A stretch of 64,000 bases of DNA from Patescibacteria group bacterium. Its GTDB lineage: Bacteria > Patescibacteriota > Minisyncoccia > Phycocordibacterales > UBA9973. The position numbers and the translations under genes are program-made. The notes under the pieces are model-generated. The model saw nothing but the letters and a program-made list of their open reading frames with translations, was not told the DNA's origin and made no database searches. Positions 4,913 to 58,240 of the stretch are shown in pieces (positions within the stretch are counted from its first letter, which is position 1; the number at the start of each line of letters is the position of its first letter). The stretch is taken from contig JAGWUB010000001.1 in assembly GCA_028868715.1 (NCBI GenBank), positions 53,480-117,479 of the forward strand, in the 5' to 3' direction.

Positions 4913-4927
4913 AATTATACTAGCGGT

Positions 4928-5512: not shown

Positions 5513-5537
5513 CTAAATTTAATAAATAATAAAAAGT

Positions 5538-5651
5538 ATGGAACAAGAACAAGAACCAATAGAATACAAATCTAACGGGGCGCTTGTCGGTCTGGTAATT
5601 ATCGTTATCATTCTCGTAATCGGATTGATCTATCTCATACTAAAAAAATAA
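5538..5651 (+). CDS. Small hydrophobic peptide of 37 aa with a single TM helix, hypothetical.
   Basis: ATG at 5538, sequence MEQEQEPIEYKSNGALVGLVIIVIILVIGLIYLILKK, stop at 5649-5651. It lies in the ppa-tig gap and there is no homology evidence. Confidence 0.2.
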   Translation: MEQEQEPIEYKSNGALVGLVIIVIILVIGLIYLILKK

Positions 5652-5658
5652 AATAAAT

Positions 5659-6708: not shown

Positions 6709-6745
6709 ATCTTGAAAAAACTCAAAAAAAGAGTATACTAGGGCT

Positions 6746-7351
6746 ATGTTAATCCCAACCGTAATTGAAAAAAGTCAGTTTGGAGAGCGCGCTTATGATA
6801 TTTACTCACGACTACTTCGTGAACGTATCATCTTTTTGAGTGGTCCGATAGACGACCACACGGCAAATATAGTCATTGCTCAGCTCCTATTCCTAGAATC
6901 TGAAGACTCCAAAAAGGATATCTATCTTTATGTAAATTCACCTGGTGGATCCGTAACCTCTACTTTAGCAGTAGTAGACACCATGAATCATGTACGTCCA
7001 GACATTGCTACTTTTTGTGTCGGCTTAGCAGCCTCTGGCGCAGCTATTATCCTATCCGCTGGTAAGAAAGGCAAAAGACATATCTTGCCAAATGCTGAAG
7101 TCATGATTCACCAACCTTTGGGTGGAGTAGAAGGCCAAGCTACAGACATAGCCATCACTGCAAAACATATACTAAAAACTAGAGATAATCTAAATAAAAT
7201 GCTTGCAAAAAATACTGGTAAATCTCTAGCCCAAATTGAAAAAGATGTAGAGCGAGATTTCTTCATGGATGCTGATGAAGCTAAAAAATATGGAATTATT
7301 GACGAAATCGTCACCAAATCCAAACTCCCAGAAAAAAAATCTAGTAATTAG
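6746..7351 (+). CDS. clpP: ATP-dependent Clp protease proteolytic subunit.
   Basis: [19 protein letters not shown]...[14 protein letters not shown]...MIHQP gives the Ser-His catalytic context typical of ClpP. Confidence 0.95.
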
Positions 7352-9242: not shown

Positions 9243-9264
9243 GTGTTTATTCTAGCATAAATGG

Positions 9265-9316
9265 ATCCCGTTAGAGATAGAGGGTCGCTACGAGCCCTCG
9301 CGATCTCTAACGGGAT
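9265..9316. repeat. Hairpin element, copy 1. Arms ATCCCGTTAGAGAT and ATCTCTAACGGGAT flank an inner GC-rich near-palindrome.
   Basis: ggATCCCGTTAGAGATagagggtcgctacgagccctcgcgATCTCTAACGGGATgg, located 23 nt upstream of the Clp ATPase start. The same arms occur at 26946..27030. Confidence 0.6.
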
Positions 9317-9514
9317 GGACAAAATATAAGTATTTTGTTATACTATATGTGTAACTTTACAAATTTATTTTAACTTGGTTCGCAAGAATATTCCATATAT
9401 TATGAAGCGTTTAAGGAAAAATTTTAAAACTTTTTACCGGGCAGACAGAAAAATTACTTTGTCAAACTAAGACCATAATTATAGTGGCTCATTCTTGTAG
9501 GCTAAAAAAAGCTT

Positions 9515-11047
9515 ATGAGTATAACATTAATAACGATTCTAATAAGCGCAGTGGCGCTTCTTTTAGGTGCAGGTATCGGATACTACCTACGCTTGATAAT
9601 AGCTTTAGGCAAGCGAAGGTCTATCGAAATAGACATCAAGCAAATGATGGTTGGCGCCAAGGAGGAGGCGCAAAGGATCACCGATGAAGCCAAGAAGGCC
9701 TCTGAAGCCAAGCTAGCGGAATTAAAAGAAGAAGAAAAGAAAAAGGAGCAAGAATTTAAAGAAACTGAAAAAAGACTTATCAAAAAAGATGAGTTTTTGG
9801 ATGCTCGGCAGACAGAAATAGATAAAGAGGTAGAAAACATCAAAACAAAAGTAGAGGAAATAAAAAATATCAAAGAGAAAGTAATAAAAATAGAAGGAGA
9901 AAAGAGAGCTGAACTAGAAAAAGTAGCTGGGCTCTCCGAGGAAGAGGCCAAAGAAGAACTCTTGAAGGAAGTTGAGAAGAAATATGAAGAGGATATTGTA
10001 GTCAGAATCCAAAAAATTGAAAATGTGAATGAGGAAAAATTGGAAAGAAGGGCAAAAGACATTTTGGCCACCTCAATACAACGACTCGCTAAAAGTACTG
10101 CCTCCGAATTGATGACTACCGTCGTATCCATCCCAAACAATGAAATTAAAGGGAAAATTATAGGTAAAGAAGGTAGAAATATCAGGGCTTTTGAAAGAGC
10201 CGCTGGGGTGGAGCTCATCGTGGATGATACTCCGGGCTCAATCGTCATCTCTTCCTTTGATCCTATCAGGAGGCAAGTCGCGCGTCTGGCTTTAGAAAAC
10301 CTAATATTAGACGGACGAATTCAACCAGCCAAAATAGAAGAACTAGTAGAAAAGGCTAAAGAAGAAATAAATAAAATAATCAAAGAAAAAGGCGAGCAAG
10401 CCGTATACGAATGCGGAATCTTCAATCTAGACCCACGCATCGTCGCTATTGTCGGCAGACTTTATTTCCGCACCAGTTACGGACAAAATGTTCTCCAGCA
10501 CTCTGTAGAAATGGCGCACATCGCTGGTATGATTGCCGAAGAATTGGGCGTGGATGTAGCTATAGCTAAAGCCGGAGCCTTAGTGCACGACATCGGAAAA
10601 GCGCTTGACCACGAAGTCCAAGGAACCCACGTAGACATAGGTATGCGTATCTTGCAAAAATTCGGTGCCGACGAGCGAATTATTACCTCGATGAAGAGTC
10701 ACCACGAGCAATATCCATATGAAACGATTGAGTCTGTCATCGTTCAGACAGCTGACGCAATTTCCGGAGGACGACCTGGAGCTCGCCGTGACTCAGTAGA
10801 AAATTACCTCAAGAGACTTCAAGAGCTTGAAGCCTTGGTAAACGCCTTTCCGGCGATTGAAAAGTCATACGCGCTACAGGCGGGACGAGAAATTCGTATA
10901 TTTGTTACTCCAGAAAAAATTACTGACGCCGAAGCCAAGCTAATGGCGCGAGATATTGCAATAAAAATAGAACAAGAACTCAAATATCCAGGCGAAATCA
11001 AAGTCACGATGATACGAGAGACTAGAATTATAGAATACGCGAGATAA
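9515..11047 (+). CDS. rny: Ribonuclease Y.
   Basis: N-terminal TM, a coiled-coil region, a KH domain (GKIIGKEGRNIRAFERAAGVELIVDD) and an HD domain (LVHDIGKALDHE...SHHEQYPYE). Length is 510 aa. Confidence 0.9.
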   Translation: MSITLITILISAVALLLGAGIGYYLRLIIALGKRRSIEIDIKQMMVGAKEEAQRITDEAKKASEAKLAELKEEEKKKEQEFKETEKRLIKKDEFLDARQTEIDKEVENIKTKVEEIKNIKEKVIKIEGEKRAELEKVAGLSEEEAKEELLKEVEKKYEEDIVVRIQKIENVNEEKLERRAKDILATSIQRLAKSTASELMTTVVSIPNNEIKGKIIGKEGRNIRAFERAAGVELIVDDTPGSIVISSFDPIRRQVARLALENLILDGRIQPAKIEELVEKAKEEINKIIKEKGEQAVYECGIFNLDPRIVAIVGRLYFRTSYGQNVLQHSVEMAHIAGMIAEELGVDVAIAKAGALVHDIGKALDHEVQGTHVDIGMRILQKFGADERIITSMKSHHEQYPYETIESVIVQTADAISGGRPGARRDSVENYLKRLQELEALVNAFPAIEKSYALQAGREIRIFVTPEKITDAEAKLMARDIAIKIEQELKYPGEIKVTMIRETRIIEYAR

Positions 11048-19296: not shown

Positions 19297-20811
19297 ATGT
19301 CCGGGAAAAGATATAAAATTAAGAATAAACATTTTATACATGAAATTGAAACCCGGAAATCTAGTTATTGGGAAAATATAAGAGATAAAAATAAACTCAA
19401 AATATTCAAAGACACGGTAGCTTCCGTGCCAGCCTACCGTTTGTTTTTAAAAAAACACTCCATTGATCCCAAAAAAATTCGCACGATAGCAGATCTAGCT
19501 CATGTGCCCGTTACAACTAAAGATTCCTATCTAAGATCTTTTTCTGTGGCTAACCTTTGTAAGAAAGGAACACTTATGCACCCCCTAGTTTTCACAGCAA
19601 CTTCTGGATCTACGGGCGAACCATACTATTTTCCTAGATTTGAAAAAATAGATAGAGAATACTCTATTTTAATTGAATACTATCTTTCCCAAAACAAAAT
19701 ATCACTGGAAGGGCCAACTCTAGTTGTCGTTTGTTTCGGTATGGGAATTTGGATTGGTGGAGTTATCACCTATCAGGCTTTCGAGGCGGCAAGTCGAGAA
19801 AGCGGATATCCAATATCAATTATCACTCCAGGAACAAACAAAGAAGAAGTTTTAAATTCTCTTGCAAAACTTGCACCAAATTTTTCACAAACTATTCTGA
19901 TTGGCTACCCACCCTTTATCAAAGACCTGATAGACGAGGCGGCAAGTAAAAAAATAAATCTTAGTAAGTTAAATATGCGTTTAATGTTTGCCGCCGAATC
20001 ATTCTCAGAAAAGTTTAGAGATTACTTGGGTAAAAAGGCAAAAATTGACAACATTTACCGTGACACATTAAATGTATATGGTAGTGCTGACATCGGTGCC
20101 ATGGCATGGGAAACAGGAGTATCAATTCTAATTAAACGGATACTTACTAAAGATAAAAAATTATATGCAGATTTTTTTCCATCGGTTTCACAAATGCCAA
20201 CAATGGCTCAATACAATCCACACTTTATAACCTTTGAGTCAGTCGATGGAAATATTATACTGTCAGCTGAAAATGCTCTGCCGCTAGTTAGATACGCTAT
20301 TGGAGATCATGGTGGAGCTATAAGTTTTAGAGAAGTAGAGAAAAAATTTAAGAAAAATGGTTATGATCTAAAAACACTTGCAAAAAAAGCTGGTATCACT
20401 TCAATCCCAGAATTACCATTCGTGTATATTTACGAGCGAAGCGATTTTTCAACAAAGTTTTATGGTGCAATTGTTTTTCCAGAATATATAAAGTCTGCAC
20501 TGGAACGAGATAAGGTTGAGAATTTAGTTACCGGAAAATTTACTATGTTCACTCGCCACGATAAAAAACATAACCAGTTTCTAGAAGTAAATGTTGAGCT
20601 CAAAAAAGGAATACATGCTGACAAAAATTTAAATAAACTAGTCCAGAATCTTGTCTTTCAAGAACTTATAGAGCGAAGTACTGAGTGTAGAAATAACGCC
20701 CAGCTTTTAGGCAAAAAAATGCTACCAAAAATTACCTTTTGGTCATATGAAGATTCTCTATATTTCAAAACTGGTATCAAGCAAAAGTGGGTGAAAAAAA
20801 CACCAAAATAG
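19297..20811 (+). CDS. PaaK/CapK/F390-synthetase-family adenylate-forming enzyme.
   Basis: VPVTTKDSYLRSF corresponds to the PaaK LPxTxKxDLR motif, and TSGSTGEPYYFP is the AMP-binding motif. Length is 504 aa. Confidence 0.65.
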   Translation: MSGKRYKIKNKHFIHEIETRKSSYWENIRDKNKLKIFKDTVASVPAYRLFLKKHSIDPKKIRTIADLAHVPVTTKDSYLRSFSVANLCKKGTLMHPLVFTATSGSTGEPYYFPRFEKIDREYSILIEYYLSQNKISLEGPTLVVVCFGMGIWIGGVITYQAFEAASRESGYPISIITPGTNKEEVLNSLAKLAPNFSQTILIGYPPFIKDLIDEAASKKINLSKLNMRLMFAAESFSEKFRDYLGKKAKIDNIYRDTLNVYGSADIGAMAWETGVSILIKRILTKDKKLYADFFPSVSQMPTMAQYNPHFITFESVDGNIILSAENALPLVRYAIGDHGGAISFREVEKKFKKNGYDLKTLAKKAGITSIPELPFVYIYERSDFSTKFYGAIVFPEYIKSALERDKVENLVTGKFTMFTRHDKKHNQFLEVNVELKKGIHADKNLNKLVQNLVFQELIERSTECRNNAQLLGKKMLPKITFWSYEDSLYFKTGIKQKWVKKTPK

Positions 20812-45016: not shown

Positions 45017-45880
45017 TTGGCGGTGGTTTTTGTCGTTGTGCTTTTTCTCACAAAAAACAAAACTTTCTTTACAAATACAAGACCAGATGGACTAGTTTAC
45101 AACGGAAATGAAAAAATTCAAGATTTAGTAAATAGGGACACTGATGGAGATGGTGTACCAGATTGGGAAGAATCTTTATATGGGACTGATCCGACTAAAA
45201 AATCCACTTTTGATGGCATTCCAGATGCCGTGTATATAGCCAAATTAAGTGGACAATCACCGCAAAATGGAGAAATAAACCTAAATATCAAAGGGCAGGA
45301 AAATTTGACGCAAACAGATCAGCTTTCCAGAGAGCTTTTTTCCAGTGTGGCGGCCTTAAATCAAGCTGGGGGTATAGACCAAAATGCCGTAGACCAATTA
45401 AGTAATTCCTTGGCTAGTAAGATACAAAACGGAGAAGCTAGAAAAATGTTTGTATATTCTGATGTTAGGGTTGGGAAAAGTGATAGTGTGCAGGCTATAA
45501 AAAATTATAATACCACGTTAAATAATATTTATTCTAAATATCCAATGAAATACACGATAGGTGATGTGCTGCAAAAATTTATTATTGATCAAAACAATGT
45601 CGACGAGAGTGTATTGCCACAATTCGATCCGATCATAAAACAGACAAACAATATCATAAATGATATGTCTAAAATGGATGTGCCGCCAAGTTTAGCATAT
45701 CTGCACTTAGATACGTTAAATAAATTAGAAAAAGTATACGAAAATGTCACTGACATTAGACAATACAGCACAGACATAGTTGTAGCTATGAGTGGTATCA
45801 GCCAATATCAGACAAGCGCCGATAATTTAGTTTCCAGCACAAATAATCTGGCTAGTGCCATAGAAAATAGATTGAAATAA
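45017..45880 (+). CDS. Membrane-anchored hypothetical protein with a DxDGDGxxD calcium-binding-like motif. It is the first gene of the T4SS-like block and appears to use a TTG start.
   Basis: N-terminal TM VVFVVVLFLT. DTDGDGVPDWEE is a thrombospondin-type-3/calcium-binding-like motif. No ATG is available, so the start is uncertain. Confidence 0.4.
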   Translation: MAVVFVVVLFLTKNKTFFTNTRPDGLVYNGNEKIQDLVNRDTDGDGVPDWEESLYGTDPTKKSTFDGIPDAVYIAKLSGQSPQNGEINLNIKGQENLTQTDQLSRELFSSVAALNQAGGIDQNAVDQLSNSLASKIQNGEARKMFVYSDVRVGKSDSVQAIKNYNTTLNNIYSKYPMKYTIGDVLQKFIIDQNNVDESVLPQFDPIIKQTNNIINDMSKMDVPPSLAYLHLDTLNKLEKVYENVTDIRQYSTDIVVAMSGISQYQTSADNLVSSTNNLASAIENRLK

Positions 45881-45932: not shown

Positions 45933-47930
45933 ATGAGCTTCGAAAATAAAACAACTCAAAAATTAATTTCCGCTCTCTTAATTATTTTGACTCTGATACC
46001 GACTGTTTTAATCTTTGTGCCAAAACAAGTAACTGCGCAGGGGCTCCCTGTGACCGCTTTTTGCCCCACCGCAACAAACCCTCAAGCTGTGTGTGCAAGT
46101 GAGGGCACTTCGTTTTGGCATAAAATTCTAACAGGTATGGTGGTTGGTACTAGTGCTACAACTGCAACAAATACAACTAAAGAAATAGTCACTGAGGCTT
46201 TAAAAGAAATCGTCCGAGTCGCGGCGCAAAGGTTGCTCGCGCAAATGACTCAAAGTACCGTAAACTGGATAAATACTGGCTTTCACGGAGCGCCACTTTT
46301 TGTGGAAAATCCTGGATCTTTCTTTGCTGATATAGGTAAAACCGAACTAAGAGACTTCGTAAATATAGTAGGCTATGACAGTGTTAATCAGCCTTTTGGT
46401 AAAAGCTTTGCTTTAAATGCTATAAATAGTTACCGAAGCACCTTTGCCAACAATGCCCAATACTCTTTTAGTAAAGTCACAAATGATCCTGTTTTGCTCA
46501 ATCACTTGAGGACAAATTTTAGCACCGGTGGTTGGGATGCATTTTTAATAAATAGTCAATTCCCTCAAAACAATTACCTCGGGTCTCAAATGATATATAC
46601 CGATGAACTGGCTAGAAGGTTGAGTGGCACAAATCCGACTCAAACAGATATAATCAAACAAACCTTGGCTCAAGGACAAGGATTCCTATCTCCACAGAAA
46701 TGTTTGACTAACCCTGATTATAATAATCTCAATAATCAATTTCATAAACCAACTTTCAAGTGTTCACCACCGACAGAAGATTGTAGTAATGACCCCACTG
46801 GCAACTGTGTTAGTCGTGAAATTATACGATGCAAGAGGGAAGAGTCTACTTGGGATGCAACCAATTTTTGTCCAAACAACCCAGCAGACGGAACTCCCGG
46901 CTTAGTAAATACTACTCCTGGATCAGTGGTAGCTTCATCTATAATGAAAGCGGTAAATGTGCCCATCGACAAAGCAACATTGGCTGGGACAGTGGGTAAT
47001 AGTTTGACTGATGGCTTGTCCGCTATTTTTGATGCCTTACTAAATAAACTAGTCTCTTCTGGATTAAATGCAATTACAAATCCAACGCACAACACAAACA
47101 GTGCTAATAATTCTACAAACAACGTAGCTGGCACAGGCTTTGACTGGACTGGAGCGGGGCAAACAGTAGCGCTTGGCACATTTAAAACAGATGTCCAAAC
47201 AGCAATAAACAGCGCCAACCAAGAGCTTAAATTGATAGACAATACTGATACAAATACTCCTGGAATTTTACAAATATTTAACCAAATTTGGCCAAAAACC
47301 GGAGAACTAGATATGTGCTTACCGGGACCAAACATTGGATGGGAAAATAGAGTAGATACAGACATACAAAATTCAAATGCGAATCCAACAACAATAGCTC
47401 CCGTAATAACTTCATTTAAAACATGGGTAACTAATAAGATGAGGGCAGAACTTCCAGACTCAAAAAACTTTTTGAGTACGGTTAATTCTATTGCCGAAGT
47501 AAATAAACAAGCGACTGACTTAAACAATAGGGAAAGTACAATAATAAATACTTTAACAAAACTTCAATCAATACAGGATGAATTGAGTGGTATAACCACT
47601 CAGCCAGACGCAGGCTCGGGGAGCGACACAGCTTTGACAAATTTGAAGCAAAGATATGATGGAATGCTGGTAGACCTATCTAGTCCTATCACTGTAGCTG
47701 ATATGCGAAATAAATTGGCTGACGCCAAAGACAACTTAACCAACTTGGGCACGCTCATTACACAATGCACCACAGAGCGAACTGCAAAAGGCTGGGCAAA
47801 CCCCGGAGGAGCAGATAGTGTGTTTAATAATTCCAGTACCGAAAAAAATGTATTTTGTAATTCGTACCCAAGTGTGCCAGTATCTTGTGATGCAGTTTTC
47901 CAGACTAGTGCAGAAGATTACAAAAAATAA
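45933..47930 (+). CDS. Large secreted or membrane-anchored protein (665 aa), hypothetical; a T4SS-associated surface component.
   Basis: N-terminal signal/TM LISALLIILTLIPTVLIFVP. It is Cys-containing and Thr/Asn-rich. No enzymatic motif. Confidence 0.5.
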   Translation: MSFENKTTQKLISALLIILTLIPTVLIFVPKQVTAQGLPVTAFCPTATNPQAVCASEGTSFWHKILTGMVVGTSATTATNTTKEIVTEALKEIVRVAAQRLLAQMTQSTVNWINTGFHGAPLFVENPGSFFADIGKTELRDFVNIVGYDSVNQPFGKSFALNAINSYRSTFANNAQYSFSKVTNDPVLLNHLRTNFSTGGWDAFLINSQFPQNNYLGSQMIYTDELARRLSGTNPTQTDIIKQTLAQGQGFLSPQKCLTNPDYNNLNNQFHKPTFKCSPPTEDCSNDPTGNCVSREIIRCKREESTWDATNFCPNNPADGTPGLVNTTPGSVVASSIMKAVNVPIDKATLAGTVGNSLTDGLSAIFDALLNKLVSSGLNAITNPTHNTNSANNSTNNVAGTGFDWTGAGQTVALGTFKTDVQTAINSANQELKLIDNTDTNTPGILQIFNQIWPKTGELDMCLPGPNIGWENRVDTDIQNSNANPTTIAPVITSFKTWVTNKMRAELPDSKNFLSTVNSIAEVNKQATDLNNRESTIINTLTKLQSIQDELSGITTQPDAGSGSDTALTNLKQRYDGMLVDLSSPITVADMRNKLADAKDNLTNLGTLITQCTTERTAKGWANPGGADSVFNNSSTEKNVFCNSYPSVPVSCDAVFQTSAEDYKK

Positions 47931-47935
47931 TTTAA

Positions 47936-50374
47936 ATGCGAAAAATACTTAAAAAATTAATTACGGCTGGTTTCATAGCCATCATACTAGTTGGACTGTT
48001 TAGCTCGCCAGCTAAAACTCAAGCGCAGACGGGATCACCAACAAAAGGAACCTGCACTATAACAGATACTAGTGAACGCCCTCCTATTGTTTCTAATGTA
48101 CCAAATCAAACATTTGATCAATGTACTGGACTAAAACCAACAACAGGTAATGTTGCTTGGGCAGCAGATGGTGGTGGAGCAACCGTAAATGCAGCACCAG
48201 CGGGTCCGACAGGAACTTGTACTACAGTTGATACAAGAGACACTGTAGATAAAACTCAATACCCAACTGGAGCTACAACCGTAGCAAAAACTACTCAAGC
48301 AGATTGTACAAAAATGAACCAACCTGGCCTAGTGGCAACTTGGACAGCAGATGCGACTGACAGCACTAGTAATATGTTTAAGCAGTGCTCACTTGATGGA
48401 AATTTTAGTATTGATAAATGTACCGTGTATGTTCTTTATATTATTTTTTATGAATTACCTGCTTACATTTTATGGTTAACGGCCTATATATTTAACGCCT
48501 CCATACCTTTAACTATCGGCACTGTTTTGTATCATAATAATTTTTTACCGGAAGCATGGAGAATCGTACGAGACTTTTCAAACATATTCTTTATCTTGGT
48601 GTTGCTATACGTGGCAATCAAAATGATTTTAGGGTTCGGTGGAGGAGAAGTAAAGAAAATGGTTGTGAACGTCGTGATCGCTGCCCTTCTCATCAACTTC
48701 AGCATGTTTATGACTGAAGTAGTAATTGATTCTTCAAATATTTTAGCTTTAATTTTTTATAATAAAATTACTGTGAATCCTGCTCAAACCAGTACCGAGA
48801 GTGATACCCCATATTACCCAACTTTAAATAAAGACAAAACGGCTATTGAAGAAAAGGATATTGCGGGCGGGATAGTAAAAGGTTTTGATATAACCAAATT
48901 TCTTAGCCCTGATTCAGTAACTCTACAAGTGGGCGACAAGCCTGCGGGTAGCGCTATGGCCACTGCGAAAAACACAGCGACTGGTACTGTGATCGGATCA
49001 ATTTTTGGACCCCTAGGTGGAGTCGCTGGGGGAGCTATCGGTTATTTATTTTCTGCTTCGGCATCAGGGAATCAAACTGGTCTTCAAGTAGCCATAATCT
49101 TCACGGCGTGCGCTGTGTTCCTAATGGCATCTTGGGCTTTTCTAATAGCCGGATTTGCATTTTTGGGAAGATTAATTGAACTTTGGATTTTAATTATCTT
49201 TTCACCTTTTGCTTTAATGTCTTTTTCTGTACCAAGATTAAAAAGTATAAAATTTTTAGGTTGGGATGCTTGGCTAGAGCGCTTGATGCATACTGCTTTT
49301 ATGGCGCCAATTTTTATGTTTTTCTTGTTACTGATATCAAAACTGGTACAAATAGATATCTTGGGCGGACTAACAAATACAGATAAGCCACCTTCAATTG
49401 CTCATGCATTACTTATCCTTGCAATTCCAGCAATAATATATCTGACCATGCTTTACAAAGCCACTGAGTATGCCAAAAAAAATGCGGGCGAATTTGGGGC
49501 AGCGGTAGTCAAGTATGGAGAAATGGCGGCAGTGGCTGTAGGTGGGTTGGCATTGGGTGCAGCGTCTGGAGGAACATCGATGGCAGCTACGGCAACTATT
49601 GGTAGAGCTGGTGCTGCTGCTGCTAATTCAGGGTGGGCTAAAAAATGGGAATCAAAAGGGTGGGGTGGTGAATACTTTAGGAGAGCAGCTACAGCTGTTG
49701 GCTCATCAAGCTTCGATGTTCGTGGAATAAAAATAGGAGGTAAAGCTTTGGGAACAACTATAGGAGCTGGTGAAGGAAGAAAAGATGGATTTACAGAAAG
49801 AAGGAAAAAACAAGTAGAAAATAGACAAAAGAGAGCTAAGGATCTTGAGGTTGGAGAGGATGAGCCATTAAAACAAAAGTTAAATAATTCAGAAAATGAC
49901 TTACAGCAAATGATGAATAAGGTTGCAAGAGATTTTGAAATAATCGATAAAGACTTGGAAGGTCAAAGACAAAAGAAAAACGATGCTGTAGTTGGGTCAA
50001 TTGAAGAAGCGACAGCTTCGAGAGAAATTGAGAGATTAAATAATATAAAGAGAGATATAAATGATGGCAAGGCCTTTAATTATGTAGATAGTGCTGGCGG
50101 TATTCATAATGTAAGTTCTACAACTGTAATAGGGGGAGATAATAATGGAAAAACTATAAAACAAATGCAAAGAGAAGTAATTCCTGAACAAAAAAATGAT
50201 GTAACAAAAGAAAATAGAGCAAGAAAATGGACTTACGCAGATACCACGCGAAGTAAGTTTGGGCAGGCAAAAAGTTTTGTGTTCAGTGGTGGAACACATA
50301 GTTTTGCAGGAGCACATGAAGCTGCTCACGCCATAATAATGGAAGCAAAATTGCCAGACAATGTGGCAAAATAA
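47936..50374 (+). CDS. VirB6/TrbL-like polytopic membrane protein (812 aa). It has an N-terminal secreted Thr-rich domain, then ~6-8 TM helices, then a charged C-terminal region.
   Basis: Signal peptide. A hydrophobic core YVLYIIFYELPAYILWLTAYIFNASIPLTIGTVL...FFILVLLYVAIKMILGF...VVIAALLINFSMFMTEVVIDSS...IIFTACAVFLMASWAFLIAGFAFLGRLIELWILIIFSPFALM is typical of TrbL/VirB6-type channel subunits. The call rests on architecture and context only. Confidence 0.5.
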   Translation: MRKILKKLITAGFIAIILVGLFSSPAKTQAQTGSPTKGTCTITDTSERPPIVSNVPNQTFDQCTGLKPTTGNVAWAADGGGATVNAAPAGPTGTCTTVDTRDTVDKTQYPTGATTVAKTTQADCTKMNQPGLVATWTADATDSTSNMFKQCSLDGNFSIDKCTVYVLYIIFYELPAYILWLTAYIFNASIPLTIGTVLYHNNFLPEAWRIVRDFSNIFFILVLLYVAIKMILGFGGGEVKKMVVNVVIAALLINFSMFMTEVVIDSSNILALIFYNKITVNPAQTSTESDTPYYPTLNKDKTAIEEKDIAGGIVKGFDITKFLSPDSVTLQVGDKPAGSAMATAKNTATGTVIGSIFGPLGGVAGGAIGYLFSASASGNQTGLQVAIIFTACAVFLMASWAFLIAGFAFLGRLIELWILIIFSPFALMSFSVPRLKSIKFLGWDAWLERLMHTAFMAPIFMFFLLLISKLVQIDILGGLTNTDKPPSIAHALLILAIPAIIYLTMLYKATEYAKKNAGEFGAAVVKYGEMAAVAVGGLALGAASGGTSMAATATIGRAGAAAANSGWAKKWESKGWGGEYFRRAATAVGSSSFDVRGIKIGGKALGTTIGAGEGRKDGFTERRKKQVENRQKRAKDLEVGEDEPLKQKLNNSENDLQQMMNKVARDFEIIDKDLEGQRQKKNDAVVGSIEEATASREIERLNNIKRDINDGKAFNYVDSAGGIHNVSSTTVIGGDNNGKTIKQMQREVIPEQKNDVTKENRARKWTYADTTRSKFGQAKSFVFSGGTHSFAGAHEAAHAIIMEAKLPDNVAK

Positions 50375-51612: not shown

Positions 51613-52038
51613 ATGCAGTTTAAAGTTCCACAATTTTTAGAAATAGAAGACAAAATTTTTGGCCCATTTACTTTTCGGGAGTTTGTTTACTTGGTGGGTG
51701 GGGGAGGAATGTGCTTTGTAGTCTATAAATTACTGGGGCTTGTCTGGGGAGCGATACCTATCTTGGCCATTGCTGGATTTGCCGGAATGCTTACTTTTTA
51801 CCGCCCAAACAATAAACCCTTTATAGACATGCTGGAAGCTGGTTTTAAGTATGGGTTTCAAAGTAAACTGTATATCTGGAAAAGACGTCAGATTAAAGTT
51901 GCCAAAAATAAAGCTCCAGTGGTGGTTGAGGACAAAAATATAGCCATGAGAGAAAATGTAAAGTTAAGTGGTAATAAATTGCGAGACTTAGCTTGGAGTT
52001 TAGATGTTTTGGATTTAAAAAAGGAAGGTAATAATTAG
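51613..52038 (+). CDS. PrgI/VirB3-like small two-TM membrane protein, sited directly upstream of VirB4.
   Basis: 141 aa with two adjacent TM helices FVYLVGGGGMCFVVYKLLGLVWGAIPILAIAGFAGMLTFY. The position immediately 5' of a VirB4 homolog is typical of PrgI/VirB3-family proteins. Confidence 0.45.
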   Translation: MQFKVPQFLEIEDKIFGPFTFREFVYLVGGGGMCFVVYKLLGLVWGAIPILAIAGFAGMLTFYRPNNKPFIDMLEAGFKYGFQSKLYIWKRRQIKVAKNKAPVVVEDKNIAMRENVKLSGNKLRDLAWSLDVLDLKKEGNN

Positions 52039-52106: not shown

Positions 52107-52748
52107 ATGGCATTAAATGCAAAAGCAACTCAAGAGTTTGTACCGATAAAGGAGGTGCGCGACGGAACCATCGTGTTAAAAGATGGTGGCCTGCGGGCTA
52201 TTGTCTTGGCTAATTCAGTCAATCTTTCTTTGAAATCTGATGATGAACAGCGAGCAACGATACTTCAATTTCAAAACTTTTTAAATACTTTAGACTTTGC
52301 TATCCAAATATCAGTGCAATCAAGAAGATTGGACATTCGTCCTTATCTTTTGCTGTTAGAAAATAGAATCAAAGTCCAAAATGAACCTCTTCTAAAAATA
52401 CAAACAAAGGAATATATAGAATTTGTCAGAAGCTTTACCGAGTCGGTAAATATAATGACCAAAACTTTTTTTATTGTGGTACCTTATACCCACACGGTAT
52501 TAAAATCAGATTCTGGGGTTTTGGGAAAACTATTCAAGAGAAGCAGTAAGGAAGAGAAAAAAATTGAAAAAGAGGAGGATTTTGAAGAAAAAAAATCCCA
52601 GCTAGAACAGAGAGTGGGGGTGATACAACAAGGCCTTAGCCGTTGTGGCATAAAATCAGCCAGATTGGGTACTGAAGAAGTAGTGGAAGTTTTTTATAAG
52701 GTTTTCAATCCCGGAGAAGTGGAAGGAAAAATTAAACTTGAACAATAA
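52107..52748 (+). CDS. VirB4/TraE-family ATPase, N-terminal domain, encoded as a separate ORF.
   Basis: ATQEFVPIKEVRDGTIVLKDGGLRAIVLANSVNLSLKSDDEQ matches the conserved N-terminus of Gram-positive-type VirB4 proteins (PrgJ/TcpF/Orf16-like). TAA at 52746-52748 is followed 2 nt later by the ATG of the next ORF. Confidence 0.6.
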   Translation: MALNAKATQEFVPIKEVRDGTIVLKDGGLRAIVLANSVNLSLKSDDEQRATILQFQNFLNTLDFAIQISVQSRRLDIRPYLLLLENRIKVQNEPLLKIQTKEYIEFVRSFTESVNIMTKTFFIVVPYTHTVLKSDSGVLGKLFKRSSKEEKKIEKEEDFEEKKSQLEQRVGVIQQGLSRCGIKSARLGTEEVVEVFYKVFNPGEVEGKIKLEQ

Positions 52749-52750
52749 TT

Positions 52751-54625
52751 ATGATGGATTTTTTTAAAAAATTATTTGGTGGAAAAAATGTGCGGCCGAG
52801 CTTGGACGCTAGGCACGCGGGTGATAGTGGTATGCAAGCCACGGTAATGCCCGTCTTGCCGGAAGAAATCTATGAATCAGCCAGCATAGAATTGCAAGAC
52901 ATCATCGCTCCATCAGCTCTTAAAATTGAATCGAAATCAATAAACCTAGGAGAAAAGATAGCTCGTACTTTTTTTATAATATCTTATCCGAGGTTTTTAA
53001 CTGATAACTGGTTTTCTCCAATAATTAATTTGGATAAAGTTTTTGATATCTCAATCTTCATTCATCCGATAGATACTTCGCTAGCGCTAAGACAGTTTCA
53101 GAAAAAGGTTGCTGAAGTGCAAAGTCAGATAAATGTTCGTGAGAAAAAGGGTATGGTGCGTGACCCAATGCTGGATACTGCTTATCAAGATTTAGAAGGA
53201 TTGCGTGACAATTTGATCCAAGCGCAAGAAAAAATGTTTGATATGGGTATATATATCACTATTTATGCCGACAACGAGATGGAGCTTTTCAAAGTTGAGA
53301 ATGAGATAAAATCAATGCTGGAGTCCAGACTCATATATATCAAACCGGCCCTTTTCCAACAAGAAGAAGGTTTTAAAAGTATCATTCCGATAAATACTGA
53401 CCTGTTAAATATTCACCAAAAATTAAATTCAGAGCCGTTATCCAGTATTTTTCCTTTTGTTTCTTTTGACCTAACTTCAGATACTGGTATCCTCTACGGA
53501 ATAAACAGGCACAACTCAAGTTTAGTTATTTTTGATAGATTTTCTTTGGAAAACTACAACTCGGTAACCTTTGCTAAGTCTGGATCAGGAAAATCTTATG
53601 CGACTAAGCTGGAAATTTTGAGATCTCTGATGTTTGATATTGATGTCATGGTCATAGACCCAGAGCGGGAATATGAATTCTTGTCTGAAGCCGTCGGTGG
53701 AAGATATTTTAATATTTCTCTTTCAAGTGACCACCATATGAACCCTTTTGACCTGCCTATCCCTCGTGAGGATGAAACTGCCGAAGATGTGCTCCGATCA
53801 AATATTATAAACCTAGTCGGACTGTTTAGATTAATGCTCGGAGGACTAACCCCCGAAGAAGATTCACTGGTTGATCGCGCTATCTCAGAAACCTATGCGA
53901 TGAAAGATATAACTCCAGAATCAGATTTTTCAAACATTGAACCTCCACTGCTTTCTGACTTTGAAATGGTTCTCTCGGGCATGGAAGGAGCCGACTCTGT
54001 AGTTTCTAGGTTGGCAAAATATACTCATGGTTCTTGGGCAACATTTTTGAATAGACCAAGTAATGTAGATATTAATAAAAAATTCGTAGTATTTTCTATC
54101 CGCGACATGGAAGACGAATTAAAGCCAGTGGCAATGTATATCATCATGCATTTTATCTGGAATGCTATCCGTAAAAATCTAAAGAAGCGTCTCCTGGTGG
54201 TGGACGAAGCTTGGTGGATGATGAAATCCGAAGACACAGCATCCTTCTTGTATTCTATGGCAAAAAGAGGCAGAAAATACTATTTAGGACTTGCTACTAT
54301 CACCCAAGATGCGGCGGACTTTATGAAATCTCCCTATGGCATACCGATAGTTACCAACTCTTCTATACAAATTCTTTTAAAACAATCGCCAACCACCATA
54401 GACATACTACAAAAAACATTTAATTTAACGGATGAAGAAAAATATTTACTTTTGGAGTCTGGGGTAGGTGAAGGTATTTTCTTTGCAGGCCTAAAACATG
54501 TGGCTATCAAAGTCGTGGCCTCATATACGGAAGACCAAATCATAACTTCTGACCCATCACAAATATTGTTAAACCGAAAAGCAAAGGAAGATTATGAAAC
54601 AGCGGTAAAGGACGGGAAACTTTAA
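52751..54625 (+). CDS. VirB4-family type IV secretion ATPase, central and C-terminal ATPase domains.
   Basis: Walker A FAKSGSGKSYATK, Walker B LLVVDEAWWMM, and a C-terminal region typical of VirB4/TrsE/CagE. Confidence 0.85.
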   Translation: MMDFFKKLFGGKNVRPSLDARHAGDSGMQATVMPVLPEEIYESASIELQDIIAPSALKIESKSINLGEKIARTFFIISYPRFLTDNWFSPIINLDKVFDISIFIHPIDTSLALRQFQKKVAEVQSQINVREKKGMVRDPMLDTAYQDLEGLRDNLIQAQEKMFDMGIYITIYADNEMELFKVENEIKSMLESRLIYIKPALFQQEEGFKSIIPINTDLLNIHQKLNSEPLSSIFPFVSFDLTSDTGILYGINRHNSSLVIFDRFSLENYNSVTFAKSGSGKSYATKLEILRSLMFDIDVMVIDPEREYEFLSEAVGGRYFNISLSSDHHMNPFDLPIPREDETAEDVLRSNIINLVGLFRLMLGGLTPEEDSLVDRAISETYAMKDITPESDFSNIEPPLLSDFEMVLSGMEGADSVVSRLAKYTHGSWATFLNRPSNVDINKKFVVFSIRDMEDELKPVAMYIIMHFIWNAIRKNLKKRLLVVDEAWWMMKSEDTASFLYSMAKRGRKYYLGLATITQDAADFMKSPYGIPIVTNSSIQILLKQSPTTIDILQKTFNLTDEEKYLLLESGVGEGIFFAGLKHVAIKVVASYTEDQIITSDPSQILLNRKAKEDYETAVKDGKL

Positions 54626-54679: not shown

Positions 54680-55666
54680 ATGAAGTTAAAAGTTTTATCA
54701 TATTTAGGAATCGGATTGGCAATACTTGTAATAATAGTATCTATTTCACCGTTCCAAACGCGGGCAGCCGTCTCACCGAGCGCTATCTCTGTAGATATAA
54801 TGCCACTTAATCCCGCTGCGGGAGAAAGTACGACGATTGCCTTGGGTAGTTTCGCTACTAATTTAGATAGTGTCTCAATATCTTGGTATGTAAATGGTAA
54901 AAAAGTTTCTGCTGGAATTGGAATGAAAACATTTTCGGTCAACGCACCCGCAACTGGCTCATCGACTACGGTTCGAGCTGTAGTGTCTTTGGTAGATGGG
55001 GATATAGAAAAAAAAGTAGTGATAAGCCCCAATGTGATGGTCTTGCTATATCAAGCAACTGACTCATATGTACCGCCATTTTATCGCGGTAAGGCATTGC
55101 CGACAGTTGGAAGTGACATAAAGGTGGTAGCTATGCCTGAAGCAAAAAATATTTCTCCTCAAAATATGCTTTACGCTTGGAAAAGAAATTACACAAATGA
55201 TGCGACTGGATCTGGCTATGGCAAGAATTCTCTTACTTATACGAATGATTACTTATCAAACTCGGACAACGTTTCAGTGACAGTTTCTTCAATCGATGGA
55301 AAATATTCATCAGAGGCAAGCCTTGATATCGGACCAACCCAACCGAAAATATCTTTTTATAAAAACGACACTTTGCTCGGGACATTGTGGGAACAAGCCC
55401 TCACAGATGGACACATGGTAAAAGGTGATGAAGTGATGGTGGCAGAACCATATTTTATTTCACCGAAAGAATTGTGGAATCCAAGCTTGGTGTGGAATTG
55501 GTATATTAATGATAGCCTGACGGATAATACATCAAGCATTCATAAAAACTGGCTACCAATAAAGATAGAAGGGGGATCAACAGGAACTTCTGCTTTGAGA
55601 TTAGATATTAGTAGTAACGACCAAATTTTAGAAACAGCTAGTAAGCAAATAAATGTCACATTTTAA
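54680..55666 (+). CDS. Secreted hypothetical protein with repeated Ig-like beta-rich segments; T4SS-associated.
   Basis: Signal peptide MKLKVLSYLGIGLAILVIIVSISPFQTRA. No catalytic motif. Confidence 0.45.
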   Translation: MKLKVLSYLGIGLAILVIIVSISPFQTRAAVSPSAISVDIMPLNPAAGESTTIALGSFATNLDSVSISWYVNGKKVSAGIGMKTFSVNAPATGSSTTVRAVVSLVDGDIEKKVVISPNVMVLLYQATDSYVPPFYRGKALPTVGSDIKVVAMPEAKNISPQNMLYAWKRNYTNDATGSGYGKNSLTYTNDYLSNSDNVSVTVSSIDGKYSSEASLDIGPTQPKISFYKNDTLLGTLWEQALTDGHMVKGDEVMVAEPYFISPKELWNPSLVWNWYINDSLTDNTSSIHKNWLPIKIEGGSTGTSALRLDISSNDQILETASKQINVTF

Positions 55667-56825
55667 AATGAAAAAATATTTACCATACGTTTTAATACTA
55701 ATTATTATAGTGGGATTTTTTGGTTCAGCATTGAAAGTTAGTGCAGAAACATATCAACAATGCGTAGAAAGAACTAAAAACTTACCTATAGATACTAACG
55801 TAGATCCGTGTGCAGGATTACAACCAGACCCAGGAACTGTAATAAACAATAATGTCACCCCAGCAACCCCAAAAACACCAGACCCAGCAAGCTACCACCT
55901 CTTGCAACCACTCCCAGGTGTAAGTGGAGATTTTAGCCCTGGGCCGACAAATGCTCTAGGTAGTTATTTGAATTCAATGATAACTCTATTTATCGGTCTG
56001 TGTGCTGTGGTAGCGGTGGTGATGATTGTGATAGGTGGCATAGAGTGGTCTACAAGTGAACTCATTTCTAAAAAAGAAGCAGCCAAGGAGCGGATTTGGG
56101 GTGCTGTTTTAGGGCTTCTCTTGGCTCTGGGTTCATATGCTCTTTTATATACAATAAATCCTGATTTACTAAATACTAATGTGGATATTGGGGATGTGAC
56201 AATACAATCGACAATTGAGCAACAGATTAAAGACCTTGTAGATATAAGAACCTCGGGAATCCAAACTATTGATGGAAAACCAGGAGCTAAAATAAACTTT
56301 AAAGCAGAGGCTTGTCCGGTGGCGTTAGCTGTTGAGGGAACAACAGGAGTGAAAGCTGCATACCTTTTAGCAATATTTGACCAAGAGTCAAGTAGTGGGA
56401 GTATGGCTTTTTCAGGGTGCTCATCAAGTAACGCAAGTTGTGTTAAATGGCGACCTGGTACTGGAGATGAGCAAAAATTAAATCAAATATTGGCCGCAAT
56501 CGGAAAAACTTCTCCAGTAAACGTATCACCTGGCGGTACAGCTGGTGGCGCCTATGGTGGGTGTATGGGATATATGCAAGTTTGTCCATCAGAATGGATT
56601 AGGGTTGGTGGGTTGGGTAAAAACCCTTGGAACTTAAACGATTCAATGACAGTAGCTGCAAATCTTTTAGTAAGAGAAAAGGGCTATAATCAAAACCCAG
56701 CACAATCTGTTTGTAAGTATTTCGGTAGTTGTGGTGGTGGTGGTCTAGTTAATTATCAAGCAAGTGTTCTACGTAAGGCTGCAGCATTTCAAGACAGGAT
56801 TAATAAAGGAGATTGTAGTGCCTAA
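55653..56825 (+). CDS. Fusion of a T4SS pilin-like (VirB2/TrbC-like) N-terminal module and a C-terminal lytic-transglycosylase (SLT, VirB1-like) domain.
   Basis: Signal peptide. A Pro/Thr linker follows, then two hydrophobic helices (MITLFIGLCAVVAVVMIVIGGIEW; IWGAVLGLLLALGSYALLY) in a pilin-like topology. The C-terminal SLT core is LAIFDQESSSGS...GCMGYMQVCPSEW, with the catalytic Glu in the ES motif and a GxMQ motif. Confidence 0.55.
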   Translation: MSHFKMKKYLPYVLILIIIVGFFGSALKVSAETYQQCVERTKNLPIDTNVDPCAGLQPDPGTVINNNVTPATPKTPDPASYHLLQPLPGVSGDFSPGPTNALGSYLNSMITLFIGLCAVVAVVMIVIGGIEWSTSELISKKEAAKERIWGAVLGLLLALGSYALLYTINPDLLNTNVDIGDVTIQSTIEQQIKDLVDIRTSGIQTIDGKPGAKINFKAEACPVALAVEGTTGVKAAYLLAIFDQESSSGSMAFSGCSSSNASCVKWRPGTGDEQKLNQILAAIGKTSPVNVSPGGTAGGAYGGCMGYMQVCPSEWIRVGGLGKNPWNLNDSMTVAANLLVREKGYNQNPAQSVCKYFGSCGGGGLVNYQASVLRKAAAFQDRINKGDCSA

Positions 56826-56836
56826 ATGATAAAAAT

Positions 56837-58240
56837 ATGCCAAAAAGAAACTTTATACTTTTAATAACCATCTTAGCTCTCATAATAATCGGGCTATTTG
56901 GATTTTTATATTTACGCTCGGGAACAACTCCTGTGGAGGTTGTCAGCAATGGCACAAATTTTCTTTCTATGTTTAATCCATTTAGAAGCAATCCTTCTAC
57001 TCCTGGAACCACTCCACCTGAAACAAACACACCTGGCGAAGATCAAGGTACTCAGAGCGGGGAGGTGGTAGCAGAAAACTTGAAAAAAGTTTCCACCATG
57101 CCTATCGCTGGGTTCACAATATTTTCCAAAGAAAGATTAAAGGAAGTTCCAGTAGTAGTGCCACCTCCAAGCACTACTGACAGTACAACCACACCAGCAA
57201 CAACCACGACACCTACTACTACAACTCCAGCAACCCCTCCATCAGCGGCTCCAGTTAAAAAAGCGCCAGTGGTTAAGCCTGTTCCACCAAAAACTGAGTT
57301 TGCCGAAGCTGTCAGGTATGTAGAGAGAGCTACTGGAAATATATATCAAACTTTTGTAGATAAAATAGAAGAAAAAAAGTTTTCTCAAACAGTTATACCT
57401 AAAATATATGATGCCTATTTTGGCAATCAAGGAATGTCTGTAGTCATGCGACACTTAAAATTAGGGGATGCAACTATAGAAACTTTCTATGGTCTTCTGC
57501 CGAAAGAGAAATTTGGCGAAGATCTAACTAATAATGAAATAAAGGGATCATTCTTACCAGACAATGTTAAAGACATTAGCCTATCGCCAGACGCTTCAAA
57601 AATATTTTACTTATTAAACGTAGGAAATTCTGCGGTTGGTACAATTTTAAATTTAGCAGATGGCAAAAAAACTCAAATTTTTAATTCTGTTTTTTCAGAG
57701 TGGAATTCCAACTGGGGAAGTGCCAATACAATTACTCTGACTACAAAACCTTCAGGAGCCGTGCCTGGATATATGTATGCGATTAATGTAGGCACTAAGA
57801 ATTTCAGCAATGTACTCGGAAACGTAAATGGATTAACCACGCTGATGAGCCCAAGTGGTAAATTGGTCTTGGTAGGCAATGGATCTTTGTCATTATATAT
57901 CTACCATACAGACACAAAAGCATTTGACCAGCTTGGAGTAAATACTCTACCTGAAAAATGTACCTGGAATAAAATGAGTGATGCTGTCTATTGTGCTGTG
58001 CCGACATTTATTACTGGGGCAACTTATCCAGATGATTGGTATCGTGGAGAAATATCATTCTCTGACCAAATTTGGAAAATAAATATAAAAGATGGAAACA
58101 CTAAGATGATCGCGGATCCACTCGCAATAACCAACCCGGAAGATATTGATGGTATTAAGCTCGCCGTGGATAACAATGAAAACTATTTATTTTTTGTAAA
58201 TAAAAAAGACTCCTTTCTTTGGGAGCTATCTCTAAAATAA
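56837..58240 (+). CDS. Bitopic membrane protein with a Pro/Thr-rich linker and a beta-rich C-terminal domain; the last gene of the T4SS-like block.
   Basis: N-terminal TM ILLITILALIIIGLFGFLYL and a linker PPSTTDSTTTPATTTTPTTTTPATPPSAAP. The C-terminal domain is unrecognised. Confidence 0.45.
   Translation: MPKRNFILLITILALIIIGLFGFLYLRSGTTPVEVVSNGTNFLSMFNPFRSNPSTPGTTPPETNTPGEDQGTQSGEVVAENLKKVSTMPIAGFTIFSKERLKEVPVVVPPPSTTDSTTTPATTTTPTTTTPATPPSAAPVKKAPVVKPVPPKTEFAEAVRYVERATGNIYQTFVDKIEEKKFSQTVIPKIYDAYFGNQGMSVVMRHLKLGDATIETFYGLLPKEKFGEDLTNNEIKGSFLPDNVKDISLSPDASKIFYLLNVGNSAVGTILNLADGKKTQIFNSVFSEWNSNWGSANTITLTTKPSGAVPGYMYAINVGTKNFSNVLGNVNGLTTLMSPSGKLVLVGNGSLSLYIYHTDTKAFDQLGVNTLPEKCTWNKMSDAVYCAVPTFITGATYPDDWYRGEISFSDQIWKINIKDGNTKMIADPLAITNPEDIDGIKLAVDNNENYLFFVNKKDSFLWELSLK

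Follow-up and report, generated by a model that had tools for sequence, protein, structure and literature searches.

A predicted type IV secretion pilin fused to an exchangeable peptidoglycan-enzyme cassette in Patescibacteria

Why would the pilin of a secretion machine be made in one chain with an enzyme that cuts cell walls? This question is raised by a gene at positions 55653–56825 of a 64-kb stretch of Patescibacteria DNA (contig JAGWUB010000001.1; hereafter "the window", meaning the whole stretch that was analysed), in which a putative pilin of a type IV secretion system (T4SS) is joined to a lytic transglycosylase (LT)-type domain inside a T4SS gene cluster. A preliminary description had read this open reading frame (ORF) as a signal peptide, a Pro/Thr linker and two hydrophobic helices followed by a C-terminal domain with ES and GYMQ motifs, that is, as a VirB2-like pilin module fused to a lytic transglycosylase. 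Every one of these elements is present, and both halves of that reading are borne out by profile matches and by the T4SS locus in which the gene lies. Beyond this single protein, we observe that in this clade the T4SS pilin normally carries a rapidly exchanged peptidoglycan-enzyme cassette. Throughout, L001–L085 denote related loci, P0001 and so on denote database proteins, and residues are counted from the ATG at 55653 (the 390-aa version).

The two halves of the fusion

The gene and its parts, with the evidence for each, are as follows.

55653–56825, plus strand: pilin–lytic transglycosylase fusion (ORF list and sequence; 390 aa as listed, 385 aa from the ATG at 55668)
55653–55745, plus strand: Sec-type signal peptide (residues 1–31; hydrophobic segment 6–33, AlphaFold2 (AF2) helix 10–26)
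55746–55889, plus strand: Pro/Thr-rich N-terminal linker with two Cys (residues 32–79; predicted disordered)
55890–56186, plus strand: T4SS_pilin (VirB2-like) module (residues 80–178; pilin profile, PF18895, NCBIfam, AF2 helices)
56187–56234, plus strand: flexible tether from the pilin hairpin to the enzyme (residues 179–194; contains the cassette 5' breakpoint at about 56192)
56235–56822, plus strand: lytic transglycosylase/lysozyme-like domain, MltB/Slt35-like (residues ~195–390; Glu245 at 56385–56387, GYMQ at 56568–56579)

The real start is probably the ATG at 55668, because the listed ATG at 55653 falls within the last codons of the preceding gene, p328 (stop codon 55664–55666), every homologue starts with MKK and the identical database protein P0001 is 385 aa long. 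This ATG lies one base past the p328 stop (TAAAATG), an arrangement that suggests translational coupling. The signal peptide (about residues 6–31, ending in KVSA before ET) aligns with those of free-standing pilins, and the AXA rule predicts cleavage after VSA. Behind it lies a linker so variable that orthologues cannot be aligned there, and the predicted local distance difference test (pLDDT) score is below 50 across residues 25–102. A search for the same fusion in other genomes recovered it from over 60 independent assemblies, with gene calls made by several pipelines, and a misassembly or gene-merging artefact can thus be rejected.

The next module contains, in order, YHLLQPLPG (81–89), a first transmembrane (TM) helix, a short loop, a second TM helix and TINPDLL (167–173). 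AF2 places the helices at residues 101–134 and 138–167, linked by the short loop STSELISKKEAAKERI, and hydrophobic segments are predicted from the sequence at 6–33, 101–138 and 147–169. A hidden Markov model (HMM) that we built from 37 free-standing pilins matches the window protein from the signal peptide to TINPDLL (155 bits, E = 2e-47), and the module is 60–65% identical, over 99% of its length, to free-standing pilins of 120–175 aa, nearly all of them annotated PF18895. Furthermore, NCBIfam returns the Mbov_0395 pilin-like conjugal protein (E = 6.5e-5), and PF18895 is matched at E <= 0.01 by 32 of the 33 free-standing pilins scanned, as well as by 105 of the 120 relatives that were taken from the first search and scanned with Pfam. 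The pilin HMM found no further pilin-like ORF in the window. Judged by these matches, the N-terminal module is a T4SS pilin (PF18895, VirB2-like) and not a generic anchor.

The contrary possibility, which the preliminary description had itself named, is that the helices have no similarity to pilins: the hairpin would merely anchor a housekeeping wall enzyme and its location in a T4SS cluster would be incidental. Simple N-terminal TM anchors are common in Gram-positive T4SS hydrolases and in many autolysins, and fold searches cannot discriminate a two-helix hairpin, which yields non-specific matches. However, the hairpin is the most conserved region of the LT-class members (53–69% identity, against 32–57% for the enzyme), it is recognised by the HMM of free-standing pilins with the score given above, and it sits in the exact slot that a free-standing pilin occupies in sister genomes, whereas weaker LT relatives without a pilin have a different N-terminus made of a signal peptide and a coiled coil. 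We therefore regard a plain anchor as very improbable.

Topology prediction returns the signal peptide and the two helices that had been expected. As to orientation, an N-out, loop-in, C-out arrangement is suggested by the signal peptide, by the basic character of the loop and by the topology known for VirB2/TraA; a cytoplasmic loop would leave the N-terminal linker as well as the C-terminal enzyme outside the membrane.

Beyond the tether, where pLDDT is below 50 (residues 172–185), residues ~195–390 are well predicted as a helical domain. A profile of 15 full-length orthologues matches the MltB structure 9vlr (E = 1.1e-6) and structures of SltB3 and SltB1 (E 2.6e-4 to 2e-3), and the query alone also grazes TIGR MltB_2. 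In the alignment to MltB and SltB, the catalytic E-S/T motif is matched by E245-S246 and the GxxGxxQFxPxT motif by GGCMGYMQVCPSEW. The residues E245 (within QES), G303, G306, Q309 and P312 are invariant in the 15 orthologues, GYMQ corresponding to 306–309, and each of the 24 complete members of the window's cassette class has both the ES/T and the GxxGxxQxxP motif. The predicted fold is lysozyme-like and alpha-helical, with g-type lysozymes among the matches, and eight relatives match SLT_2, with E down to 9e-9. By profile, fold and motif, the domain is of the MltB/Slt35-like (SLT_2, family 3) lytic transglycosylase type, which sequence does not distinguish from a muramidase. Since a Pfam search of the query gave no match to the VirB1-type SLT family (PF01464) at E <= 1 and the best matches are to family 3, the enzyme would be a functional analogue of VirB1, not an orthologue. 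The SLT domain originally proposed thus survives in its fold and motifs but not in its family, which is SLT_2 instead of PF01464.

How closely this enzyme is tied to pilins was apparent from an exhaustive HMMER search with the LT domain against 1.84 billion representative proteins, which found 105 clusters at E <= 1e-3. Among these, the best 37 (E <= 1e-10) have the LT domain at the C-terminus, almost always behind a pilin module, the exceptions being fragment-like. Weaker relatives, about 450 aa long, have no pilin; a signal peptide and a coiled coil precede their LT domain. They are a plausible source of the cassette.

An exchangeable cassette in one genomic slot

Is the enzyme a fixed part of this pilin? 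A scan of genome collections for related loci returned Patescibacteria alone (Nomurabacteria, Paceibacterota, Minisyncoccia), and we compared 80 species-representative loci, about 75 of which share the order PrgI, TraC-like, VirB4, p328, pilin, p467, Jag, YidC and DnaA. The closest locus to the window is L026 (VirB4 95%, DnaA 94% identical). Between p328 and p467, L001 (VirB4 87% identical) has a 413-aa pilin–LT fusion; in L003, L004 and L005 (VirB4 88–92% identical) a bare pilin, 147 or 165 aa long, stands there and leaves no space for an extra gene. Because this slot and its gene order are shared with bare pilins, the fusion is the locus pilin of the clade and not an extra protein. About 90% of slot pilins have a C-terminal extension, of 100–240 aa, and about 60 of the 120 relatives also match peptidoglycan-enzyme families (VanY 23, NlpC/P60 11, SLT_2 8, SLT 5, YkuD 5, M15_4 4, SLT_3 4, Amidase_5 4). 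By clustering, the extensions found in this one slot fall into ten or more unrelated groups, distributed as follows.

Class c0, no known family: 15 slot loci
NlpC/P60: 12 slot loci
Class c4, weakly SLT_3 lysozyme-like: 11 slot loci
VanY: 10 slot loci
SLT_2-like LT of the window: 7 slot loci and the window
Peptidase_M15_4: 5 slot loci
Class c5, related to c4: 3 slot loci
YkuD: 3 slot loci
Class c9: 3 slot loci
SLT: 1 slot locus; the remaining extensions are singletons

Cassette class hardly follows VirB4 phylogeny. A locus has the class of its nearest VirB4 neighbour in 12 of 70 cases (chance expectation 0.10), none of the ten pairs with VirB4 at least 95% identical share a class, and even pairs with VirB4 99.7–99.8% identical differ (VanY in one and YkuD in the other, or NlpC/P60 and VanY).

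The DNA itself shows where the exchange takes place. Between L055 and L057, identity is 93% over the 6.3 kb that end with the pilin module, the cassette cannot be aligned (VanY in one, YkuD in the other), and identity resumes at 94% from the next gene. When the window is compared by blastn with L026, L012 and L013, homology stops at 56191–56192, just past TINPDLLNT, and restarts at 56829–56836, at the start of p467; a second break against the sister loci falls in the N-terminal linker, at about 55720–55965. With L006, whose cassette is of the window's class, homology continues through the cassette without a break. As these comparisons show, the enzyme part is an exchangeable C-terminal cassette that has been swapped by recombination between the pilin module (...TINPDL) and the downstream gene. 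That unrelated peptidoglycan enzymes replace the LT domain in relatives had escaped the preliminary description.

One alignment could be mistaken for cassette homology: the window protein gives a long BLAST alignment to that of L026, reaching residue 345. The C-terminal parts, compared alone, are dissimilar, and we rejected it as such.

The sharp junction also bears on a further reading, by analogy with known prepilins, according to which the fusion is a pro-protein: cleavage near TINPDL during pilin maturation would free a soluble hydrolase, one for each matured pilin. C-terminal processing of VirB2-family prepilins is established for RP4 TrbC, the TINP[DNE]L motif is nearly invariant in fused and free-standing pilins, the latter ending at or shortly after it with variable tails, and the tether behind the junction is disordered in the AF2 model. 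On the other hand, neither a TraF-like nor any other maturation peptidase was recognised in the locus, and TINPDL belongs to the pilin module itself and need not be a cleavage site. We consider such processing unlikely.

The largest class, c0 (L015:6001-7122, L025:5998-7098 and 13 other loci; P0037, P0019 and others), has no Pfam match, and its profile finds nothing among PDB sequences. When c0 was compared with the other cassette alignments by hhalign, even known related pairs scored poorly with alignments this small. The c0 cassette is about 150 aa long, with invariant Cys pairs and invariant H305, H314, D322, E362, H365 and H367 (P0037 numbering); AF2 gives pLDDT 84–96 over most of the domain, and the fold search was swamped by hairpin matches. 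The invariant H/D/H-x-H residues suggest a metal-dependent hydrolase, and our guess would be a metal site of the LAS/M15 kind.

Pilin–hydrolase genes are also found in more than one copy or outside the slot. In L051, two pilin fusions (5221-6975 and 8341-10227; NlpC/P60 and class c9) flank p467. A second pilin–hydrolase gene (NlpC/P60 or VanY) in L002 (8296-11119; = L021) and in L028 (~4150-6837) stands directly after a 565-aa T2SSE-family ATPase and far from virB4; a T4SS-slot pilin is also present in these cases (L035 on the contig of L021, L013 from the assembly of L028).

The surrounding locus and the possible roles of the fusion

What kind of machine does this pilin belong to? The cluster in the window lies on the chromosome of a Patescibacterium of Paceibacteria/Nomurabacteria type. 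It is co-directional and comprises genes for a secreted protein (665 aa), a presumed VirB6-like protein (812 aa), two small proteins, PrgI/VirB3, a TraC-like protein (213 aa), VirB4, p328, the pilin fusion and p467. Downstream of it, jag and yidC lie on the opposite strand, and dnaA (60390) and dnaN come after them; upstream lie ksgA (44121) and a UvrD helicase. No relaxase or type IV coupling protein turned up among the ORFs scanned, which between 1 and 39 kb were the larger ones alone. In these respects the cluster fits the origin-proximal, MPF-FATA-related (mating-pair formation class FATA) T4SS of Patescibacteria described in PMC12102498 (Quinonero-Coronel et al. 2025). The genes that matter here are the following.

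47936–50374, plus strand: 812-aa polytopic membrane protein, presumed VirB6-like (many hydrophobic helices; position; 35–40% identity in related loci)
51613–52038, plus strand: PrgI, VirB3-like (Pfam PrgI, 35.3 bits)
52107–52748, plus strand: 213-aa conserved T4SS-locus protein (79–80% identity to L001 and L003 by tblastn; orthologues annotated PF26593 TraC-like)
52751–54625, plus strand: VirB4-like T4SS ATPase, two genes upstream of the fusion (Pfam P-loop_TraG 1.4e-24, AAA_10; 84–95% aa identity to orthologues in related loci)
54680–55666, plus strand: p328, conserved secreted or anchored protein, always 5' of the pilin in about 75 loci
56837–58240, plus strand: p467, conserved protein forming the 3' boundary of the cassette, always 3' of the pilin whatever the cassette class; starts 12 nt past the fusion stop

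The 812-aa protein has no Pfam match, so that its assignment to VirB6 follows from position and from the literature (PMC12102498). Neither p328 nor p467 has Pfam or PDB similarity; by their sequence conservation and synteny they are candidate T4SS components of a hitherto unrecognised kind. Both proteins are 32–70% identical across the roughly 75 loci and begin with a hydrophobic segment; p467 also contains a long linker rich in Pro and Thr.

On these grounds we consider it somewhat probable that the fusion is a pilin-tethered equivalent of VirB1 that cuts peptidoglycan where the pilin is assembled. The functions of VirB2 and VirB1 would then reside in one chain, because the pilin carries a built-in cell-wall enzyme. 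The Sec signal peptide would export the N-terminus and the helices would insert as a hairpin, leaving the short KK..K.R loop in the cytoplasm and the linker and enzyme outside. From the strict synteny and positional orthology we infer that the adjacent VirB4, VirB3 and VirB6-like machinery would handle the pilin module as any T4SS pilin. The tethered MltB-like enzyme, whose fold and motifs are recognisable, would presumably cleave glycan strands near the pilin with Glu245 as acid catalyst, and this cleavage would open the peptidoglycan for the secretion channel or pilus; recombination between TINPDL and the downstream gene, documented by comparative genomics, has exchanged it for unrelated peptidoglycan hydrolases in close relatives. 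That these bacteria have a wall of their own to cross is indicated by relatives, which encode a class A penicillin-binding protein beside dnaN. At a minimum the target would be the cell's own wall at the site of the machine; polymerisation of the pilin, should it occur, would take the enzyme out to the host's wall. The preliminary description had suggested a wall-piercing protein at the pilus base, a position that is hypothetical.

Several observations weigh against this reading. Both Pfam scores of the query fall short of their cut-offs: PF18895 reaches 23.3 bits with the whole protein and 26.1 with the isolated module (cut-off 26.6), and SLT_2 (PF13406) reaches 15.7 bits (cut-off 24.3). The query has no Pfam match to classical TrbC/VirB2 (PF04956), relatives match this family weakly over the hairpin (9/33, 6/120 and 4/10; E 1e-4 to 2e-2), and the pilin-module profile finds no VirB2 or TraA among PDB sequences, only chance matches to membrane proteins. 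The TrbC/VirB2-like pilin first proposed therefore needs to be restated: the PF18895 family and the topology hold, but similarity to classical TrbC/VirB2 is weak and seen in relatives alone. Moreover, c0 is not demonstrably a peptidoglycan enzyme although it is the largest class, and about six slot pilins (~8%; among the bare ones those of L003, L047, L053 and L058) are bare or nearly bare, from which it follows that the enzyme is not indispensable to the pilin. Finally, a self-directed housekeeping role alone fails to explain why cassettes turn over faster than their flanks diverge; fast turnover and a hypervariable, exposed N-terminal linker fit exposure to an outside partner better.

It is precisely this turnover that favours a weapon directed at the host, a reading which we regard as possible but doubtful. 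Here the fusion would polymerise into, or cap, an extracellular T4SS pilus, and the enzyme on its surface would digest the wall of a host or prey so that the episymbiont reaches the host membrane; the cassette, a polymorphic pilin-borne effector, would be swapped to match wall chemistry or to evade inhibitors. A class almost independent of VirB4 and exchanged between flanks that are 93% identical is what host-specificity and polymorphic-toxin loci show, and every recognisable cassette is of an endolysin or effector type (LT, lysozyme-like, NlpC/P60, M15/VanY, YkuD). Both extracytoplasmic ends of the pilin are hypervariable around its conserved hairpin, and in F-type pili as solved the pilin termini face outward. 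Furthermore, in the cultured relative Southlakia epibionticum (Saccharimonadia) the T4SS genes and pilins are essential for epibiotic growth (PMC10633639), and reviews have speculated on a pilus conduit to the host (PMC12857230). Against such a role, there is no candidate ORF for a cognate immunity gene between the cassette and p467, which is conserved whatever the cassette; no pilus has so far been observed in the clade; as the sole pilin, each subunit would bear a domain of about 22 kDa, which puts filament packing in question; and the tether is short, about 15–20 residues.

Taken by itself, the very fast exchange of cassettes at a fixed junction points to selection by an outside partner, and it therefore offers a concrete handle on the role of the system, be it host wall type, pilus display or enzymatic specificity. 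Carried further, and as a tentative proposal, the T4SS-locus pilin of Paceibacteria might be a polymorphic scaffold whose polymerised hairpin displays interchangeable peptidoglycan-degrading "warheads", swapped by recombination, and possibly by natural transformation, to match or out-run host walls. If this were true, the essential T4SS of Patescibacteria would be at least partly a wall-breaching organelle for epibiotic feeding.

Some features of the window and of the related loci stand apart from these questions. Towards its upstream end the cluster contains genes for a protein with a calcium-binding bacterial TSP3 repeat (45017-45880) and for the 665-aa secreted protein (45933-47930), which is Cys-rich, without a family match and 31–34% identical in related loci. 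VirB4 is unusually conserved (80–95% aa identity among species representatives), to a degree comparable with DnaA (mostly 79–94%); strong divergence is seen in the VirB6-like protein and in those parts of the pilin that are exposed. A gene for a 23S_rRNA_IVP/bAvd-like four-helix bundle precedes PrgI in L001 (5437-5784) and L003 (5482-5850) and is absent from the window, and in L005 the pilin is preceded by two insertions, a NYN-domain gene and an ORF of 82 aa. Elsewhere in the window, ORFs of 450–500 aa at 659-2014 and 2104-3528 (minus strand) and at 19297-20811 (plus strand) have no Pfam match at E <= 1e-5 and lie outside the finding.

Assembly labels call for some caution. Several related loci come from assemblies with generic or mistaken names; for instance, several filed as "uncultured Candidatus Saccharibacteria" group with Nomurabacteria/Paceibacterota loci. 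L019 (contig JAMPXW010000001.1, 276,871 bp), filed under a "Burkholderiales bacterium" metagenome-assembled genome, has the full Patescibacteria T4SS/dnaA synteny, with VirB4 85% and DnaA 83% identical to the window, and this contig is probably mis-binned.

Comparison with known systems

The T4SS of Patescibacteria is essential for host-dependent life in one cultured model, and its function is given as unknown (PMC10633639, PMC11665869, PMC12857230). The hydrolases next to virB4 in S. epibionticum are likewise essential, according to PMC12102498, which summarises PMC10633639. They are multi-domain proteins, with two lysozyme-like domains and a cysteine peptidase, and there is an M15B-like protein; the same T4SS locus has six short PF18895 pilins (e.g. 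SEML1_0014-0019), to which the hydrolases are not joined (supplement). Free-standing pilins of Patescibacteria are treated as predicted (PMC10633639, PMC12857230). In a survey across Patescibacteria, VirB1 and VirB2 were scored separately and extra domains were reported for VirB1 matches alone; most genomes with VirB2 had no VirB1, from which it was concluded that VirB1 is apparently dispensable for pilus biogenesis (PMC12102498). Neither pilin–hydrolase fusions nor cassette exchange are described in the literature that we searched, including PMC12102498 and PMC12857230, with subscription-only papers and supplementary tables partly covered. The proteins themselves are not new, because automatic Pfam architectures such as PF18895+PF13406 are already visible in databases; it is the interpretation that appears to be new.

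Our results suggest that in Paceibacteria, the largest class, wall cutting is often built into the pilin gene, in enzyme families that VirB1 profiles miss. The scaffold further exemplifies, in nature, a pilin able to accept a large cargo at its C-terminus, and exchangeable wall-cutting enzymes may bear on how these symbiotic bacteria cross cell walls.

The nearest counterparts are the PF18895 pilins of other Patescibacteria, with which the module shares the signal peptide, the two-helix hairpin with a short basic loop, the virB4/virB3/virB6 neighbours and the slot. Those of Saccharimonadia, however, are short, arrayed and separate from hydrolases, whereas the fusion adds an enzyme of about 210 aa and a 48-aa linker. 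Similarity of the window pilin to classical TrbC/VirB2 is marginal.

On the side of the enzyme, VirB1 of Agrobacterium, P19, TrbN and EtgA share the lytic transglycosylase fold, a single catalytic Glu and a place inside a secretion operon, presumably opening peptidoglycan locally. They are soluble family 1 SLT (PF01464) proteins, unlike the MltB/Slt35-like enzyme of the window, which is covalently joined to a pilin. MltB/Slt35 and SltB1/SltB3 are the best profile and fold matches, and their E-S/T and GxxGxxQFxPxT motifs align; yet the resemblance is limited to the shared core (about 130–160 aligned residues at 13–19% identity), and the domain in the window is Cys-rich and lacks the alpha and gamma lobes of Slt35 as well as its EF-hand.

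Tethered hydrolases are also known from monoderm, MPF-FATA-type T4SS. PrgK (pCF10), TraG (pIP501) and CwlT (ICEBs1) are membrane-anchored modular hydrolases (SLT, CHAP/NlpC, LytM) and essential for function. Their anchor, in contrast, is a single N-terminal TM segment or a lipid, they often have several enzyme domains, and they are not known to exchange cassettes rapidly in a single slot. In Salmonella FlgJ (rod cap and muramidase) and in EscI-EtgA, a part of a trans-envelope filament is likewise coupled to a wall cutter, fused in some lineages and split in others. These belong to another machine with unrelated domains, and it is a cap or rod protein, not a polymerising pilin, that bears the enzyme.

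With respect to cassette exchange, the closest parallel is offered by polymorphic toxins (CdiA-CT, Rhs, LXG), in which a conserved N-terminal delivery part is followed by a sharp junction motif and by unrelated C-terminal cassettes that are exchanged between close relatives. The locus in the window differs from them in having no adjacent immunity gene, in that all of its recognisable cassettes act on peptidoglycan, and in that the N-terminal part of the protein is a pilin.

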